39,915 nt of DNA from Candidatus Saccharimonadota bacterium (GTDB lineage Bacteria > Patescibacteriota > Saccharimonadia > CAILAD01 > BJGX01): contig SICO01000001.1 in assembly GCA_009691435.1 (NCBI GenBank), positions 1 to 39,915 on the forward strand. Direction: 5' to 3'. The position numbers and the translations under genes were made by a program. The notes beneath the pieces were generated by a model. That model made no database searches. It saw nothing but the letters and a program-made list of their open reading frames with translations, and had not been told where the DNA came from. Shown here piece by piece: positions 5,538 to 39,174 of this stretch (positions are counted from its first letter, which is position 1; each line of letters begins with the position of its first letter).

Positions 5538-6347
5538 CTAACCAGTACCTGTCCAGCGGTTCATGAATATTAAAAGTACAAAAACTATAACGGTAACTGC
5601 TAGGTATTCAATGGTAATGCCCTTTTTTAGAGTGCGTTGCTTATAATGGTAGTAGATACCTCCCCAGCCATAGGCCAAAGCTGTGATAATAGCACTGTAC
5701 TGCGATAGAATAAGCGGTACACTAGGTAGCTGGTATAATACCGTCCACCGTGACGCTACCCAGAAAATCTGGACGGCCACAAAGCCCCAGAGGGCAGCTA
5801 GTATTTGAGGTTTATTTGTAAAATCAAGCAGCCACCACAGGGCTATTAGAAAATTAATAATCCATAATATTAACATCACTAAAGCAGCCGGCCAATGCCA
5901 GTAGACTACAGTCAGGCTGGCCAGAGAGCTGCTAACCAGAATAAATAAAAGAGTCAGGATATTATCCAATAGCAAATTAGGCTGAGGCTGTGTTTCTAGG
6001 TAGCATATTACTCCGTAAACTGCAGATGATACTGCTACAGATAGGATAAACAACAAAGGCGACGTTTTGCCAATGATGTAAACGCTATAAATGTAAAACA
6101 AGCTAATAGCTATCCATAACATTGGTCGCAGTGACTTTGTAATAATTGTTCTAAACTTATTAGTTACAATCAGGCGCCGGAATAAAATATAGTTGAGTAC
6201 TAATCCAGCTGGGATCATGAAGAGTGGCGAGGGTGTGTAATATAAAATGGCAATTGCACAGACCGCAATGAGTACACAGATAATAGTTATTAGGCGCTGG
6301 CCCTGAGTAAATAAATTAAGCCTTTTAATCGCTGTTTTTAAATTCAT
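5538..6347 (-). CDS. Polytopic membrane protein of unknown function (about 8 hydrophobic segments)
   Basis: Hydrophobic segments run throughout. It overlaps the LCP gene by 23 nt, consistent with co-transcription. Confidence 0.55.
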   Translation of the reverse strand: MNLKTAIKRLNLFTQGQRLITIICVLIAVCAIAILYYTPSPLFMIPAGLVLNYILFRRLIVTNKFRTIITKSLRPMLWIAISLFYIYSVYIIGKTSPLLFILSVAVSSAVYGVICYLETQPQPNLLLDNILTLLFILVSSSLASLTVVYWHWPAALVMLILWIINFLIALWWLLDFTNKPQILAALWGFVAVQIFWVASRWTVLYQLPSVPLILSQYSAIITALAYGWGGIYYHYKQRTLKKGITIEYLAVTVIVFVLLIFMNRWTGTG

Positions 6348-12202: not shown

Positions 12203-13123
12203 TTAAGCGCTCTCTAGATACCTCTCTACCTCAAGTGCAGCCCTACATCCATCGCCTGCTGCTGTAACCGCCTGGCGATAAAGTGGGTCAGCAACATCAC
12301 CTGCCGCAAAAACTCCATCAATAGCAGTTTTAACATTATCCTGAACTACTAAGTACCCAGTTTTATCCATCTCTAGGGACCCCTTAAATAAACCAGTAGC
12401 CGGGGTGTGCCCAACTGCTACAAAGAACCCCTGGCAGGCTACTTTTTGAGTTTTACCGGTTTTAATATTTTTGAGCTTCACGCCCTCAACTTTATCTTTT
12501 CCTAAAACCTCTAGAATTTCCGAGTCCCATATCACTTCAATCTTATTATTCTTGAGTACTCTTTCTTGCATTATCTTGCTAGCCCTAAATTTATCTCGGC
12601 GGTGAATGAGCGTAACTTTACTAGCTAATTTGGCCAGCGTTAGTGACTCTTCCATGGCACTATCACCGCCGCCAACCACCACTACCTCTTGATCCTTGAA
12701 AAAGAATCCATCACAGGTGGCACAGGATGATACGCCTTGCCCCATTAATTTTTGTTCACTATCTAACCCTAACCAATTGGCGCTAGCGCCAGTAGCTATA
12801 ATGATAGTTTTGGTCAAATACTCCTGTTTGCCAATTAGTAACTTCTTGGGCTGACCACCTAGTTCTACTTTGGTCGCAAATTCTTGGATAATTTCTACCC
12901 CAAACCTTTTAGCCTGGGCTTTCATCTCATCCATTAGCTGGGGGCCCAGTATACCATCTTTAAACCCTGGAAAATTTTCAACATCACTGGTTAGTAACAA
13001 TTGCCCGCCAGGAGTAGTTCCGACTACCATTAGTACTTTAATGTTCGCTCTGGCAGCATAAATAGCTGCCGTGTAGCCAGCTGGGCCAGCCCCAATAATT
13101 ATTAAGTCGTATGTTTGCATCAA
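12203..13123 (-). CDS. trxB: Thioredoxin-disulfide reductase
   Basis: FAD motif IIGAGPAG, redox CATCDG, NADPH motif VVGGGDSAMEE. Confidence 0.9.
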   Translation of the reverse strand: MMQTYDLIIIGAGPAGYTAAIYAARANIKVLMVVGTTPGGQLLLTSDVENFPGFKDGILGPQLMDEMKAQAKRFGVEIIQEFATKVELGGQPKKLLIGKQEYLTKTIIIATGASANWLGLDSEQKLMGQGVSSCATCDGFFFKDQEVVVVGGGDSAMEESLTLAKLASKVTLIHRRDKFRASKIMQERVLKNNKIEVIWDSEILEVLGKDKVEGVKLKNIKTGKTQKVACQGFFVAVGHTPATGLFKGSLEMDKTGYLVVQDNVKTAIDGVFAAGDVADPLYRQAVTAAGDGCRAALEVERYLESA

Positions 13124-13127
13124 TTAA

Positions 13128-14354
13128 TTATAACAGATTAAATAAGTCTATTGTTTGTGTCGCTAGTAATGTCATGCTAAATAACAACCCTAAGATTGGC
13201 ACTACTAGTGGTACGCTAAAAATTGGACGTTGCAGCCGGCGGTGTTTTATCTTCCAATATATTAAAGATAAGTTAACTATCGCAAAAACAATTAAAATTA
13301 AATAGCTAGTAGTAGCTGCCAGAGCCGTAAGATTAAAAAATATTGCTAATAGCGAGGAGGCTATGACCATTACTATAATAGCTAGCGAAGGAGTTTGGCG
13401 ACGTTCGTGGACAATAGCTAAGCGTTTGTGTATCCAGCCAACTTCGGCCATGCCATATAGTAATCTCGAGCCACTAATTAGGTGAGCTAGCACCCCTCCG
13501 GCCGTGGCGGTTAAGGCGATTATAGTAATAATCCATGCCGGAGAATTAGTAATTTTATTAAAAACTAAACTAAGTGGTGCCGTAGATGCCTGCAGCTGTT
13601 CGGTGGGGATAGTGTTAGTAGCGACAATTGCTATTAATATATACAAAACCGTTGCAATCGTCATGGCTGAGACTATAGCCATTGGCATTGTAAAGCGAGG
13701 GTTTTTTGTTTCCTCCGATAAATGGACCATATCCTCAATACCAATATAGGCATAAAAAGCTAGGAATGCTCCGGAGAGTAGTCCAGTCATACCAACGGCC
13801 CGGATATCTATCATCGCGCTGGGGTTAGCAAATGCTACGCCCAAAGTCTCCTTGCCAAACCAAATGATGGCTATCAAGCCAGCAATTTCTATTAATGTAT
13901 GTACGGCCGCAAATACTAGAGATTCTTTCACCCCCCATGAGGCAATGAAACCAAGAACTAGTATTATTAATGTTGAGCCAATAGGCATTATTATCCCCGT
14001 TGAACTAAAAGCATAACCACCAAAGGCTCTGGCTAAGGTGGCGGCCGATACTATGGTAGCAACCATCATTAATAACCCAACTGCCATTGAGACTGACTTT
14101 CTTTTAAAGGCCCGATGCACATAAGCAGATACTCCCTCGCTATAAGGGTGGAGGCTAGATAATTCAGCGAAAGAGAGGGCGCTAAATGAAGCTATCAACA
14201 TAGATAGTAAAAAAGCCAAGGGGGTAGCCATGCCAGCCTCACCTGCTACCTTGCCAATCAGGGCGTATATCCCGGCACCGACAATATTGCCTAGGCCATA
14301 AATGGTTACTAAAAATATACCGAGTGTACGCCTGAGCTTGTGCCGGCGAGCCAT
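13128..14354 (-). CDS. APC-superfamily amino acid permease (about 12 TM)
   Basis: The hydrophobic pattern and N-terminal region (GLGNIVGAGIYALIG) are typical of amino acid/polyamine permeases. It starts 3 nt after the heliorhodopsin stop. Confidence 0.8.
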   Translation of the reverse strand: MARRHKLRRTLGIFLVTIYGLGNIVGAGIYALIGKVAGEAGMATPLAFLLSMLIASFSALSFAELSSLHPYSEGVSAYVHRAFKRKSVSMAVGLLMMVATIVSAATLARAFGGYAFSSTGIIMPIGSTLIILVLGFIASWGVKESLVFAAVHTLIEIAGLIAIIWFGKETLGVAFANPSAMIDIRAVGMTGLLSGAFLAFYAYIGIEDMVHLSEETKNPRFTMPMAIVSAMTIATVLYILIAIVATNTIPTEQLQASTAPLSLVFNKITNSPAWIITIIALTATAGGVLAHLISGSRLLYGMAEVGWIHKRLAIVHERRQTPSLAIIVMVIASSLLAIFFNLTALAATTSYLILIVFAIVNLSLIYWKIKHRRLQRPIFSVPLVVPILGLLFSMTLLATQTIDLFNLL

Positions 14355-14357
14355 TTT

Positions 14358-15149
14358 TTAAGGCCTAAGAGTCCCGGCGAAGACCTGCCACGCCAAGGCT
14401 GTCTTGGCTACCAGACTCAGAATAATATAGACTCGCTCGCCGTAGAGATAGTTTTTCCAGGGTCCCCACTTTTTGTACTGCAAGAACATATTGATAGCAA
14501 AACAATTGAAGAATAAAAAGATGGTAACAAATATCCAATAAACGAAGGCTGGTATTTTGGCGCTAGAGGTTGAGCTAGAGGCGCTGGCCCAAAAATAAAT
14601 TGCGATGCATATCCAGGGCACGATACCTGCGATGCAACCCACGATGTAACTAATCCATTTTGTTTTTTCGGTAGTTTGATTATGGATTTCCATTATTAGG
14701 CCACAGAGGTTCATGACCATTACGAGTGCGAATAAACAAATTAGGCTGACCAGGTCGTAAATACCCGTCAGTAATGCAATCGCTACAATCATGATGCTAG
14801 CCGAAAAGCTGTATTCTATCCAGCGAGCTCGGTTCATACCAAGCTTGAGGTCTTTTTTGTAGCGGTGGAAGTAGATAGTAGAAATTATCAGGTGAGCCAA
14901 CATACAAATTACCAAGAACGCCAGAATCGGCCAAACCAAGGGGAGCTGGTAGATAGACTTGGTGGCGGAGTCGAGGCTTTCGGTGCTAGTGTTAAATGTC
15001 AGGTAGCTGACATTAATCGGAAACTTAACCTTGGCGTTGGCAATCATAAACATCACCGCCACTTGAATTGCAAAGAACACGAACATAAATATATTAAATT
15101 TTCGTAAGCCTTCGACTGTTATTTTTTTCTTGGCCACTTGACTTCTCAC
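14358..15149 (-). CDS. Heliorhodopsin (7-TM retinal protein). The true start may be the second GTG at 15137.
   Basis: Family-wide similarity to heliorhodopsin 48C12 as I recall it: RWIEYSFSASIMIV, GCIAGIVPWI, PAFVY, LFFNCFA, and GERVYIILSLVAKTALAWQVFAGTL carrying the Schiff-base Lys. Confidence 0.9.
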   Translation of the reverse strand: MRSQVAKKKITVEGLRKFNIFMFVFFAIQVAVMFMIANAKVKFPINVSYLTFNTSTESLDSATKSIYQLPLVWPILAFLVICMLAHLIISTIYFHRYKKDLKLGMNRARWIEYSFSASIMIVAIALLTGIYDLVSLICLFALVMVMNLCGLIMEIHNQTTEKTKWISYIVGCIAGIVPWICIAIYFWASASSSTSSAKIPAFVYWIFVTIFLFFNCFAINMFLQYKKWGPWKNYLYGERVYIILSLVAKTALAWQVFAGTLRP

Positions 15150-15190
15150 CCTTCTGTAAAATTAATTAATTCTTAAAGCTTATGCTTATA

Positions 15191-15219
15191 ATTATAAATT
15201 AAAAATTAGGCCGAAGCAA
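15191..15219 (-). promoter_or_regulatory. Putative promoter TTGCTT-17-TATAAT (minus strand) directly upstream of the heliorhodopsin gene
   Basis: Hexamers were read on the reverse complement. The -35 overlaps the 3' end of the upstream ORF. Confidence 0.45.
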
Positions 15220-15688
15220 TTTTGATGTAGTTTATGTTGTCGCAAATATAGTAGGCCAGTATTTTAAAGCTATTAAGCTTGGGAAGCTTAAATTTTTTAG
15301 CAATTGCTACAAGGTCCTCAAAGCTCGTGCCGCTGGTGTCTACTAGCGTAAAAACTAGTACGGTCGGCACGCTATAGTGCCTAAGGTGCGTAAAGAGTTT
15401 GTTCGCAAAAAATATTTCGATTTGATTTAAGCGTTCGTCGTGAGGCAAGTTGGCAGGCAAAGATAGCCGGCACAGCTGGGGGTTATAAACACACTGCACC
15501 GAGGCTTGGTCGTCTGAGATTATAACGCTGTCAAAACCCAACAACTCTCCGCCCTTAGCGTAGATCATATCTGGGTTCTCGGCATACGACTGAAAAACCC
15601 AGCCATGATACTCTGGGCATACTTGCAGAAACTTCTCAATGAGCTCCCTCTCGCGATGTTTTTTTATTTTGTCATATGGTAAATTCAT
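15206..15688 (-). CDS. Hypothetical cytoplasmic protein (160 aa), no recognised family
   Basis: Intact ORF with no signal peptide or TM segment, lying 16 nt downstream of the nuclease gene. Confidence 0.5.
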   Translation of the reverse strand: MNLPYDKIKKHRERELIEKFLQVCPEYHGWVFQSYAENPDMIYAKGGELLGFDSVIISDDQASVQCVYNPQLCRLSLPANLPHDERLNQIEIFFANKLFTHLRHYSVPTVLVFTLVDTSGTSFEDLVAIAKKFKLPKLNSFKILAYYICDNINYIKIASA

Positions 15689-15704
15689 AATTTATACATT
15701 CTAA

Positions 15705-37158: not shown

Positions 37159-37527
37159 CTACTTGAAATAAGGCTCTATCTTGGCTACCACCTCGCTAGG
37201 TGTTAGGTCGGTCTTAATAATATAATCTTGGGCCCCTAAATTTTTAGCTTGATCAATGGTCGCTTGGTCCATAACATTAGTTAAAACAATTACTGGCAAG
37301 CCTGGGGTTATGCCGTGCTTTTTGAGCTCCTCTAAAACTTCCATGCCACTAACATTAGGCATCATTAAATCTAATAAGACGACTTGAGGCTGATGCTCGT
37401 TAATCTTAGTTAGGGCCATAGCCCCATCAGTGGCTTCAACCGTACGAATATTAGACTTAGAAAACTTTAACTGGTACATGCTTCGGATGGAATCACTATC
37501 TTCAACTAATAAACATATTTTTTTCAT
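37159..37527 (-). CDS. Stand-alone response-regulator receiver domain (CheY-like)
   Basis: The acidic pocket VEDSD, phospho-acceptor LLDLMMP, and the T (VLTN) and K (IIKT) positions are all present. No output domain, and no kinase in the window. Confidence 0.85.
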   Translation of the reverse strand: MKKICLLVEDSDSIRSMYQLKFSKSNIRTVEATDGAMALTKINEHQPQVVLLDLMMPNVSGMEVLEELKKHGITPGLPVIVLTNVMDQATIDQAKNLGAQDYIIKTDLTPSEVVAKIEPYFK

Positions 37528-37599
37528 ATCTATACTATACCTACTTATGGTTTATGTAGTCAACTAGGCTCTGCTGCTTAGTGGCCTAGGGCAAGGTGA

Positions 37600-39174
37600 T
37601 TAGCTTTTTTTATTGAGATACACAAACAATGCTAGCCCGATGAAGCTCGCCAGCACAGTCCATTCGCCAAGCAAGGTGTATATGGTGCGGGTGCTGTTGG
37701 GCTGTATGTCGCCCAGCATATAGCTAGTAGAGTCGTCTTTGTTTTGTACCTGGATGGTGCCGTTTTGGCTCATAATATATGATAGCTTACCCCTGGCCGA
37801 CTGAACCAGTGTCCGGGCATTAGCGACGGCCTGAAAACGAGCCATTTGCTTGGCCTGGTCAAAAAACTGTGTACCAATGCCCATCGTCGAGAGCGAGGCG
37901 GCGTTTACTAGCACCTCGGCGCCGCGGTTGGTGAGCTCCCGATAATACTCGGGGGCAATAATACCCGAACAAGCCAGCACCCCATAGCTGACTCCATTAA
38001 TGGTGATTGGCTCGATTGGTTTTTTGGACTGAAAGACTGTCTTTTCGCCTTCGTGGTAGGCTATCAGCTGATAGTTGCCGGAGGCAATCAGGATGCCTTT
38101 GTAGAGGTATGGTATGTACTCTCCACCTGGTATTAAAAATGTCTTACCCTGTGCGCTCATTTGTTGGCCCGATACATCGAGTTCCACGATAGCATTTGTC
38201 TCGGTCTTTGCTGTAAATATGCTGCCGGTGGTAATTATTCTACTGGACTCGTTTTTGAGTAGCAGCTGGGCTATTTGGCGGTCTTCATTGAGCAGCCTGG
38301 GTTCGTCAAACAAGTGCGAATATTCTGGGAATACCACCAAATTAACCTTACTCTTAGGCACTGCCTGCAATGATTCCAGCAATGCCGGCTGATAATCAAT
38401 TGCGACATTAGAGCTAAAGTGAACCACACCAATCTGCTCGCTACTAGTACCAGAAGGTGTGTGATAAACATAGTATGCCAGGAGTGTAGCCAATATAATT
38501 GATACAATTATCAACTGCGAGACTCTAACGAACTTCCTGCGCCACAGCTGAAAAATTGCGATATTGACCAGCACCACCACGAAGCTCAGCCCGAATAGCC
38601 CACCGAACCTTGAAAAATACACCAGTGGTGTGGCGCTAGCTGCCAGCCCCAGCGCACCGAAGTTCCAGTGCATACCGATGCTACCGCCTTCACCTAATGC
38701 ACAGATAGAAAATATAATGCTCCTAGCACATTCACCAGCTATCCAAATTGCTGGCAATAGCAAAAAAGAGCTCTTGGAGTCTAGCGAAACCTTGAGTTTG
38801 GTATAAAGCCAAGCAAAGAGAACAAACCCACTGGAAAAAAATAGCACCATTAGCCCCAATGTTAAGGGCACAAATAGCGCCCTGGTCCAAGGGTCTTGAA
38901 TTAAATCAATGGTGTTAAGCTGGTACATCCAGCTGATGGTTATGGCCATAAAAACCACCCCCACCAGCCAAATGTATTTGATAACCTTACGAGTCTTAGT
39001 CTGTCCTTTTTGTAAAAAAACTAAATAAAACAAAAACGGCACAAAAGTTACAAAAGATAGCCACCCGAGCTGGTAGCTCATAAATGGCAGGGCCAGTGTA
39101 GCCCCGCAGCTAACGATATATAATGCGTTAAGCCAATTATAGTGCCTGACGGTGGTAAGCATGTGGTGTTTCAT
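37600..39174 (-). CDS. lnt: Apolipoprotein N-acyltransferase (Lnt)-like: N-terminal polytopic membrane domain plus C-terminal CN-hydrolase domain
   Basis: Candidate Glu in NLVVFPEY, Lys in GKTFLIPGGEYIPY and Cys in YGVLACSG. There is also a C-terminal TM segment. Confidence 0.7.
   Translation of the reverse strand: MKHHMLTTVRHYNWLNALYIVSCGATLALPFMSYQLGWLSFVTFVPFLFYLVFLQKGQTKTRKVIKYIWLVGVVFMAITISWMYQLNTIDLIQDPWTRALFVPLTLGLMVLFFSSGFVLFAWLYTKLKVSLDSKSSFLLLPAIWIAGECARSIIFSICALGEGGSIGMHWNFGALGLAASATPLVYFSRFGGLFGLSFVVVLVNIAIFQLWRRKFVRVSQLIIVSIILATLLAYYVYHTPSGTSSEQIGVVHFSSNVAIDYQPALLESLQAVPKSKVNLVVFPEYSHLFDEPRLLNEDRQIAQLLLKNESSRIITTGSIFTAKTETNAIVELDVSGQQMSAQGKTFLIPGGEYIPYLYKGILIASGNYQLIAYHEGEKTVFQSKKPIEPITINGVSYGVLACSGIIAPEYYRELTNRGAEVLVNAASLSTMGIGTQFFDQAKQMARFQAVANARTLVQSARGKLSYIMSQNGTIQVQNKDDSTSYMLGDIQPNSTRTIYTLLGEWTVLASFIGLALFVYLNKKS

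Follow-up and report, generated by a model that had tools for sequence, protein, structure and literature searches.

Among characterised heliorhodopsins (HeRs), the closest to the protein treated here is TaHeR of the Thermoplasmatales archaeon SG8-52-1 (PDB 6is6, 7u55 and 7clj), whose source organism is said to have no retinal pathway and which binds external retinal rapidly (PMC9296517). In the structures of 48C12, the founding actinobacterial member of the family (PDB 6su3 and 6uh3), the cavity residue His23 contacts a water molecule held by Ser242 and, at low pH, is hydrogen-bonded to Ser76 (PMC7049168). Prokaryotic HeRs act via partners, for which glutamine synthetase, a photolyase and an ABC transporter have been described (PMC9529153, PMC9769723, PMC11109279). 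In a screen of the candidate phyla radiation (CPR), 98 HeRs were counted, Saccharimonadia accounting for 80 and SLVAK being the most frequent motif around the retinal-binding Lys, and a role of CPR HeRs in oxidative-stress sensing was suggested (Chiriac et al. 2022, Microbiome 10:84; PMC9166423). The present study concerns a HeR gene located in a 39,915-nucleotide stretch of DNA (contig SICO01000001.1 of assembly GCA_009691435.1, Candidatus Saccharimonadota bacterium), referred to below as the window. Its product is probably an intact, ordinary HeR of a freshwater Saccharibacterium that serves as a slow light sensor or regulator using retinal from outside, and not as a pump.

By every sequence and fold test run, the open reading frame (ORF) is an intact heliorhodopsin. 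The full-length family match claimed in the original prediction was obtained with Pfam PF18761 (E = 1.4e-91; 306.6 bits, the cut-off being 26.7), which was aligned over profile positions 1–242 of 242, and the NCBIfam equivalog NF038020, “heliorhodopsin HeR”, scored 319.9 bits with a cut-off of 100. The best matches in the PDB were TaHeR (6is6, E = 1.1e-76) and 48C12 (6su3, E = 5.3e-54), and relatives about 70–80% identical to the window HeR already carry the label “heliorhodopsin HeR” from the NCBI pipeline. The reading frame is intact, and the GC content of the gene (0.432) is close to that of the whole window (0.429). The seven peptides quoted earlier for this protein, RWIEYSFSASIMIV, GCIAGIVPWI, PAFVY, LFFNCFA, GERVYIILSLVAKTALAWQVFAGTL, FVFFAIQ and LAHLI, were all found in the 263-aa translation of the ORF; no strand had been given for it, and it lies on the minus strand.

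The AlphaFold2 model, built with 89 homologues, reached a mean predicted local distance difference test score of 92.5. Its helices span residues 12–36, 72–90, 107–127, 133–159, 166–192, 201–226 and 234–261, and strands 42–53 and 58–70 form a beta-hairpin AB loop which, together with a short helix in the BC loop, is typical of HeRs. In Foldseek comparisons, the model was superimposed on TaHeR with template modelling (TM) scores of 0.89–0.95 and a root-mean-square deviation of 1.6–1.8 Å, and on 48C12 with TM scores of 0.85–0.89, whereas the best type-1 rhodopsins gave TM scores of only about 0.6 or less. The predicted distribution of Lys and Arg residues in the N-in orientation (12 inside against 5 outside, with a Lys-rich N-terminus) fits the inverted topology, in which the N-terminus would be cytoplasmic and the C-terminus outside.

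Residues of the retinal pocket were mapped with a HMMER alignment and with MAFFT alignments including TaHeR and 48C12 (Table 1). The Lys of SLVAK, K249, aligns with the Schiff-base Lys (K241 in 48C12, K238 in TaHeR), and S245, the Ser of the SxxxK motif, with S237 and S234, respectively; type-1 rhodopsins have DxxxK on helix G at this place. E112 on helix C, the single Glu counterion, aligns with E107 of 48C12 and E108 of TaHeR, in keeping with the role assigned to this Glu in the original prediction, and the second cavity His, predicted to be retained in LAHLI, is present as H86. The earlier alignment that had placed a Phe at the first cavity His also proved correct, F26 being found at position 23 of 48C12. 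The cavity departs from the typical two-His arrangement (H23 and H80 of 48C12), since H86 is present and F26 replaces its partner. On helix B, C82 takes the place of a counterion-stabilising Ser, and on helix G T250 occupies the position of Ser242. All of the 23 other cavity, retinal-pocket and counterion residues that were checked are conserved, namely, in 48C12 numbering, N16, Q26, F72, Y92, L96, N101, R104, W105, Y108, S111, M115, M141, E149, P172, F206, N207, Q216, Y226, L227, E230, R231, W246 and Q247. Across an alignment of 141 homologues, 57–95% identical, K249, E112, S245 and H86 are invariant, and so are at least 20 residues of the pocket.

Table 1 Features of the HeR locus; positions refer to the window unless another locus is named
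Feature	Position	Strand	Basis or remark
HeR ORF, longest reading (263 aa from the first GTG)	14358..15149	minus	end coordinate includes the stop codon
Probable true HeR start codon, second GTG (residue 5 of the long ORF)	15135..15137	minus	orthologue starts and GGTGAG stretch
F26 (codon TTT), helix A	15072..15074	minus	aligns with His23 of 48C12 and TaHeR
C82 and M83, helix B	14901..14906 (C82, 14904-14906)	minus	alignments; Ser76 and Ala77 of 48C12
H86, second cavity His	14892..14894	minus	aligns with H80 of 48C12 and H82 of TaHeR
E112, Schiff-base counterion, helix C, within RWIEYS	14814..14816	minus	alignments
S245-L-V-A-K249-T250, SxxxK motif of helix G	14400..14417 (K249, codon AAG, 14403-14405)	minus	alignments to 48C12 and TaHeR
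160-aa soluble protein	15206..15688	minus	upstream of HeR; conserved backbone
Variable slot between the 160-aa gene and TrxB	12203-15700		HeR is its first gene
APC-family amino-acid permease, 408 aa	13128..14354	minus	ATG 3 nt past the HeR stop
TrxB equivalog	12203..13123		TIGR01292, 409 bits; two genes downstream of HeR
269-aa protein with many predicted membrane spans	5538..6347	minus	just downstream of a LytR-CpsA-Psr gene
Response-regulator receiver domain (122 aa) and apolipoprotein N-acyltransferase-like gene (524 aa)	37159-39174	minus	adjoining genes; Lnt_N + CN_hydrolase in the latter
Open frame of at least 514 codons	1-1542	minus	runs off the left end
Isopentenyl-diphosphate isomerase and 166–168-aa protein, locus L012	4913-6777	same as HeR
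Isopentenyl-diphosphate isomerase and 166–168-aa protein, locus L013	4912-6780	same as HeR
Isopentenyl-diphosphate isomerase and 166–168-aa protein, locus L014	4919-6783	same as HeR

The second GTG of the ORF is likely to be its true start. Read from it, the protein has 259 aa and begins with MAKKKITVEG, and the starts of the 259-aa orthologues L001, L005, L009, L010 and P0001 match this position. A Shine-Dalgarno-like GGTGAG stands just 5′ of this codon at a better spacing than is offered to the first GTG, which immediately abuts a GAAGG stretch and precedes the second by 12 nt. Automatic annotation of this HeR may thus differ by four codons.

The identity of the window HeR to TaHeR is about 53% over the whole length. 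The two proteins share the Lys, the Ser, the Glu and the second His, together with Met at the position of Q213 and Asn at that of I142 of 48C12. They differ in that TaHeR, which comes from an archaeon and not from a bacterium, has His23, Ser78 and Ala79 where the window HeR has Phe26, Cys82 and Met83, and in the EF loop, which is seven residues longer in the window HeR. 48C12 is of the same family and fold with 42–43% identity, and its H23F mutant carries exactly the substitution that is natural here. Compared with this mutant, the window HeR additionally has the equivalents of A77M, S76C, S242T and S201T, and because of these substitutions the behaviour of H23F may not transfer directly to it. 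A further parallel is provided by the Chloroflexi HeR HULAa30F3, in which a hydrophobic residue likewise replaces the His of helix A; with an absorption at 562 nm, it has Leu in place of both His residues, whereas the window HeR keeps the second one (Chazan et al., bioRxiv 10.1101/2021.02.16.431466).

The replacement of the first His is a stable property of a whole lineage. Among the 141 aligned homologues, 51 are about 64% or more identical to the window HeR, and all but one of them have Phe at the F26 column, the exception being P0039 (64%), with His. In the more distant homologues this column holds His in 88 sequences, with two exceptions. In a neighbour-joining tree, the 51 Phe sequences form one clade without any His member, and the sister group consists entirely of His sequences; among the genome loci, Phe is found at position 26 in L001–L016 and His in L017–L022. 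Other residues change together with Phe26. At the position of A77 of 48C12 (M83 here), Met is found in 49 of 50 members of the Phe clade and in none of the 88 His sisters. The clade always has Met or Leu there, and this change is the second absolute difference between the two groups after position 23. The G20 position (F23 here) is Phe or Val in 46 of 50 against mostly Ala, Gly or Ser in the sisters; S76 (C82) is Cys in 16 of 50 against 1 of 88; S242 (T250) is Thr in 30 of 50 against 8 of 88; and S201 (T209) is Thr in 32 of 50 against 1 of 88. The groups differ further at several positions of the BC loop. Because the contacts of His23 in 48C12 involve Ser242 and Ser76, we infer from the published structures that the residues co-changing in the Phe clade would be structural neighbours of the first cavity His. 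The clade represents a natural, evolutionarily stable counterpart of the engineered H23F mutation and, with its His-bearing sister clade, provides a ready pair to probe the role of this His.

A wider view of the family was obtained from the 150 best representatives in a library clustered at 50% identity, of which the 59 carrying K241, E107, N16 and Q26 were kept. Position 23 in these Lys-bearing representatives is occupied by His in 40, Phe in 10, Tyr in 7 and Asn and Leu in one each, whereas position 80 is His in 56; the presence of both cavity His residues thus does not define the family. Phe in 10 of 59 such diverse proteins rules out that Phe26 is rare or unique; it is a recurrent natural variant across the family and not peculiar to the window HeR. 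Positions 23 and 76 co-vary: of the 40 proteins with His23, 30 have Ser76, all 10 of those with Phe23 have Ala76, and Ala76 is also found in 5 of the 7 with Tyr23. This pairing fits the His23–Ser76 hydrogen bond of the acidic 48C12 structure. The Phe clade of Saccharibacteria departs from it, with Ser kept or Cys at position 76, plus Met at 77. In the same survey, 44 of the 144 HeR representatives having a residue in the Schiff-base column carried Gln, Ser, Thr, Ala, Arg or another residue instead of Lys (for example, P0217, SLVATTALVW, and P0206, LIFLAQSALAW, in the set P0188–P0337). The helix G motif of these proteins aligns cleanly, and many of them are also devoid of the Glu counterion. 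Judged by their sequences, they look like HeR homologues that would presumably be retinal-free and that make up a sizeable share of the diversity of the family.

The suggestion that a change of H23 to Phe could alter the photocycle is a reasonable one: according to the summary given in PMC9726877, M still forms in the engineered 48C12 H23F and its cycle is much slower. At the same time, HULAa30F3, a natural variant that has Leu for each of the two cavity His residues, is a functional pigment and accumulates little M (bioRxiv 10.1101/2021.02.16.431466). Since H23F still forms M and the double-Leu HeR works, Phe26 should, by analogy, tune kinetics rather than abolish function.

Genes for retinal synthesis were sought by a Pfam scan of the window ORFs of at least 90 aa that were not nested in a longer gene, the gene at the left end being excluded. 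No match to blh/BCD, phytoene synthase, phytoene desaturase or lycopene cyclase was found among the scanned ORFs, so that the opsin is not accompanied, within the 40 kb, by the nearby blh or crt genes of a retinal-autonomous system. The absence of these genes from the window, asserted previously, thus stood for the scanned ORFs, but the accompanying statement that the chromophore source is open did not, as a published answer exists (PMC9296517). Jaffe et al. (2022) described rhodopsin-bearing freshwater Saccharibacteria without blh and proposed an outside source of retinal, probably actinobacterial hosts of the Nanopelagicales, noting that HeRs of the TaHeR type bind external retinal fast (PMC9296517). 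The 269-aa multi-pass protein of the window was considered as a hidden blh and rejected, as no BCD/blh match was obtained even at E values up to 1; neither Pfam nor NCBIfam gave a significant match to it, and the strongest hit was a weak one to SepX/GlpR (E = 0.004). A separate observation was made in a second branch of the Phe clade (L012–L014), in which two genes of the same strand come before HeR: one for a type-1 isopentenyl-diphosphate isomerase (NF002995, 207.8 bits), the sole isoprenoid gene adjoining HeR there, and one for a 166–168-aa protein for which no family match was found. The latter also occurs after HeR in L016 (3989-4495) and in the HeR-less contig of P0186. An isoprenoid enzyme beside an opsin, in a genome thought to be without retinal synthesis, may merit a look.

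Taken with the known HeRs, these data suggest the following course of events. The apoprotein would bind all-trans-retinal at K249, the retinal being acquired from outside and not made by the cell; its most likely source would be neighbours or hosts that produce retinal, for example freshwater Actinobacteria. Light would isomerise the retinal, and the Schiff-base proton would pass into the internal cavity of Glu, His and water without crossing the membrane. A long-lived late state would then signal via the cytoplasmic loops to one or more cytoplasmic or membrane partners; the candidates, in order of falling support, are the thioredoxin/redox system, the adjacent permease and something encoded elsewhere. 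On the helix A/B side, the cavity appears to have been remodelled in this lineage (His23 to Phe26 and Ala77 to Met83, with Ser76 to Cys82 and Ser242 to Thr250 also in the window HeR), and by analogy with 48C12 H23F, M would be expected to form still in a photocycle that is slower or otherwise altered. Several points weigh against a sensor fed with outside retinal: the absence of blh and crt holds for the 40-kb window only; retinal binding, photocycle and partner are projected from homologues; and the slow photocycle is predicted from a mutant of a 43%-identical protein, while natural Phe variants may compensate.

The genes around HeR belong to a backbone shared by the related loci, which comprises IleRS, FtsW, SNase, the 160-aa protein, a variable slot, the amino-acid permease, TrxB, a lipase-like gene, L21 and ParA; in the window, the whole run from IleRS to the lipase-like gene is encoded on the minus strand. 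HeR is the first gene of the variable slot in the window, and the slot can be followed in L001–L016 and L025–L028. In the relatives it also holds, depending on the genome, a RecD-like helicase (L001, L003–L005), an RND-type transporter, an Rv2466c-like thiol reductase alongside a P-type ATPase (L009, L010, L015, L025–L027), or small genes of unrelated kinds, and in L028 other genes stand in place of HeR. Thus, as far as gene order tells, no neighbouring gene is a conserved partner of HeR; the housekeeping backbone is conserved, and the slot that HeR occupies within it is variable. HeR and the permease are probably co-transcribed in the window, because the permease ATG follows so closely on the HeR stop codon, and also in L002 and L006; with adjacency in just these three of about 20 related loci, a conserved partnership with the permease was rejected. 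Around HeR, scans for promoters and terminators gave counts equal to shuffled expectation (10 against 11.8 and 5 against 5.1, respectively) and are uninformative on operon structure.

Upstream of HeR, the 160-aa protein has no match in Pfam, NCBIfam or the PDB. Among 5.8 billion proteins, its relatives make up only 44 clusters, none of them less than 49% identical, and the examples with contigs examined all lie just downstream of SNase in Saccharibacteria; by this distribution it is an ORFan restricted to the lineage and part of the conserved backbone. The gene stays beside HeR even where 3 kb are inserted upstream (L009, L010, L015). As a dedicated HeR partner it was rejected, since it is also present in the backbone without HeR (P0186 contig, L028).

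The neighbourhood bears on two other explanations. If HeR were tied to defence against light-induced oxidative stress, with signalling to redox enzymes such as TrxB, the position of TrxB about 0.05–6 kb from HeR in the window and in L001–L007, L009, L010, L012 and L014, the Rv2466c-like DsbA thiol reductase in the same slot of L009, L015 and L025–L027, and the published enrichment of redox genes near HeRs (PMC8612252, PMC9166423) would all be accounted for. However, TrxB is a housekeeping backbone gene that stays in the HeR-less L028, proximity carries little information in a genome of less than 1 Mb, and no CPR HeR has an experimental link of this kind. We consider this explanation unlikely, and it is compatible with the sensor reading, of which it would be one candidate output rather than a true alternative. 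Distinctly less probable is a light-dependent regulation of the downstream permease by HeR, by which an auxotrophic episymbiont would tune its amino-acid uptake to light. The 3-nt distance between the HeR stop and the permease ATG on the same strand, repeated in the tight arrangement of L002 and L006, agrees with this, as do the modulation of the ABC transporter OmrDE by a HeR, which serves as a precedent (PMC11109279), and the residues of the cytoplasmic BC loop that set the Phe clade apart from the His sisters, e.g., K98 and Y/F94. Yet L001 and L003–L005 have no permease at this place but the RecD-like helicase on the opposite strand, an opposite-strand gene of 882 aa of the RND type separates HeR from the permease in L009, L010 and L025–L027, and other neighbours are found in L007, L008 and L012–L016. 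Moreover, the permease is present in the HeR-less L028, split there into ORFs of 319 and 109 aa, and it therefore belongs to the backbone and not to a HeR module. A more elaborate version is, in our estimate, highly improbable: the Phe26/Met83 HeRs of freshwater Saccharibacteria would form a subtype of distinct function with a dehydrated, more hydrophobic cavity and an unusually long-lived signal, and in genomes such as that of the window HeR would be translationally coupled to the APC permease and gate it by light, so that uptake would be timed to the light period of the retinal-producing host.

Two explanations touch the protein itself. Conduction or pumping of ions, as in viral V2HeR3, is hardly to be expected here, although a viral HeR transports protons according to the citations in PMC11109279 and PMC12873467. 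The remodelled cavity (F26, M83, C82) does indicate a changed proton-handling region, but the changes make it more hydrophobic, not more conductive. The Glu that Kovalev et al. describe at position 202 in many proteins of subfamily 2, which is mostly viral, is not present in the window HeR. The hydrophobic extracellular half is kept, with I210 at the position of L202 of 48C12 and F214. TaHeR, the closest characterised homologue at 53% identity, is not known to perform transport, which also counts against this explanation. Just as implausible is the view of the gene as a relic, decaying or without chromophore, in a genome unable to make retinal. A relic would agree with the lack of a retinal pathway among the scanned window ORFs, with the absence of HeR from some close relatives (L028, P0186 contig) and with the loss of the Lys in many representatives of the family elsewhere; the frame is intact, however, K249, S245, E112, H86 and at least 20 pocket residues are invariant in the 141 homologues, and the clade has a wide distribution, with lakes of several continents among its sources.

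Saccharibacteria are a reduced-genome, monoderm-like group. Judging from the related loci, the window host is a freshwater Saccharibacterium of a UBA4664-like lineage (Patescibacteria/CPR). In the closest loci, which come from lake metagenome-assembled genomes (MAGs) labelled “Patescibacteria group bacterium UBA4664” or “Candidatus Saccharibacteria”, the HeRs are 91–95% identical, the gene order is the same and the neighbours are 69–100% identical. They originate from Baikal, from the ELA lakes and from two sets whose isolate names begin with RH- and TH-, and the more distant HeR loci from the Umea set, Lake Biwa and Lake Mendota. Isolate names among the nearest loci include RH-26jul17-99, TH-Jun18-49 and MiE-16apr19-257, styles which presumably go back to the sampling of Chiriac et al. 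The reduced, housekeeping-dominated setting described in the original prediction was borne out, since the nearest genomes are Saccharibacteria MAGs and the genes of the window are mostly housekeeping ones (L31, RF1, PrmC, ParAB, L21, IleRS, FtsW, FtsZ/A, Map, Adk, HisRS, RecJ, SecDF, PriA, Def and Fmt). A HeR in such a genome is not new, as 80 Saccharimonadia HeRs with SLVAK had already been catalogued (PMC9166423). These agree with the window HeR in organisms, habitat and motif, nothing of substance differs, and the window HeR belongs to the set of Chiriac et al. in all but name. It is thus real, intact, ordinary and already known in kind, and it matters little as such, dozens of copies of this gene having been counted before in freshwater Saccharimonadia. 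The Phe26/Met83 signature and the location in a variable slot are small additions to the known picture; neither was found in a search of Chiriac et al. (2022). At the same time, where a genome has a few hundred genes, the list of possible partners of its HeR becomes shorter.

Some minor features of the window complete the description. No tRNA genes or Rfam families were found in scans of the window. Two-component genes do not flank HeR, no histidine kinase was seen in the window, and its only response regulator lies 22 kb away, as a stand-alone receiver domain adjoining the apolipoprotein N-acyltransferase-like gene. At the opposite end, a long open frame runs off the left border of the window (Table 1).

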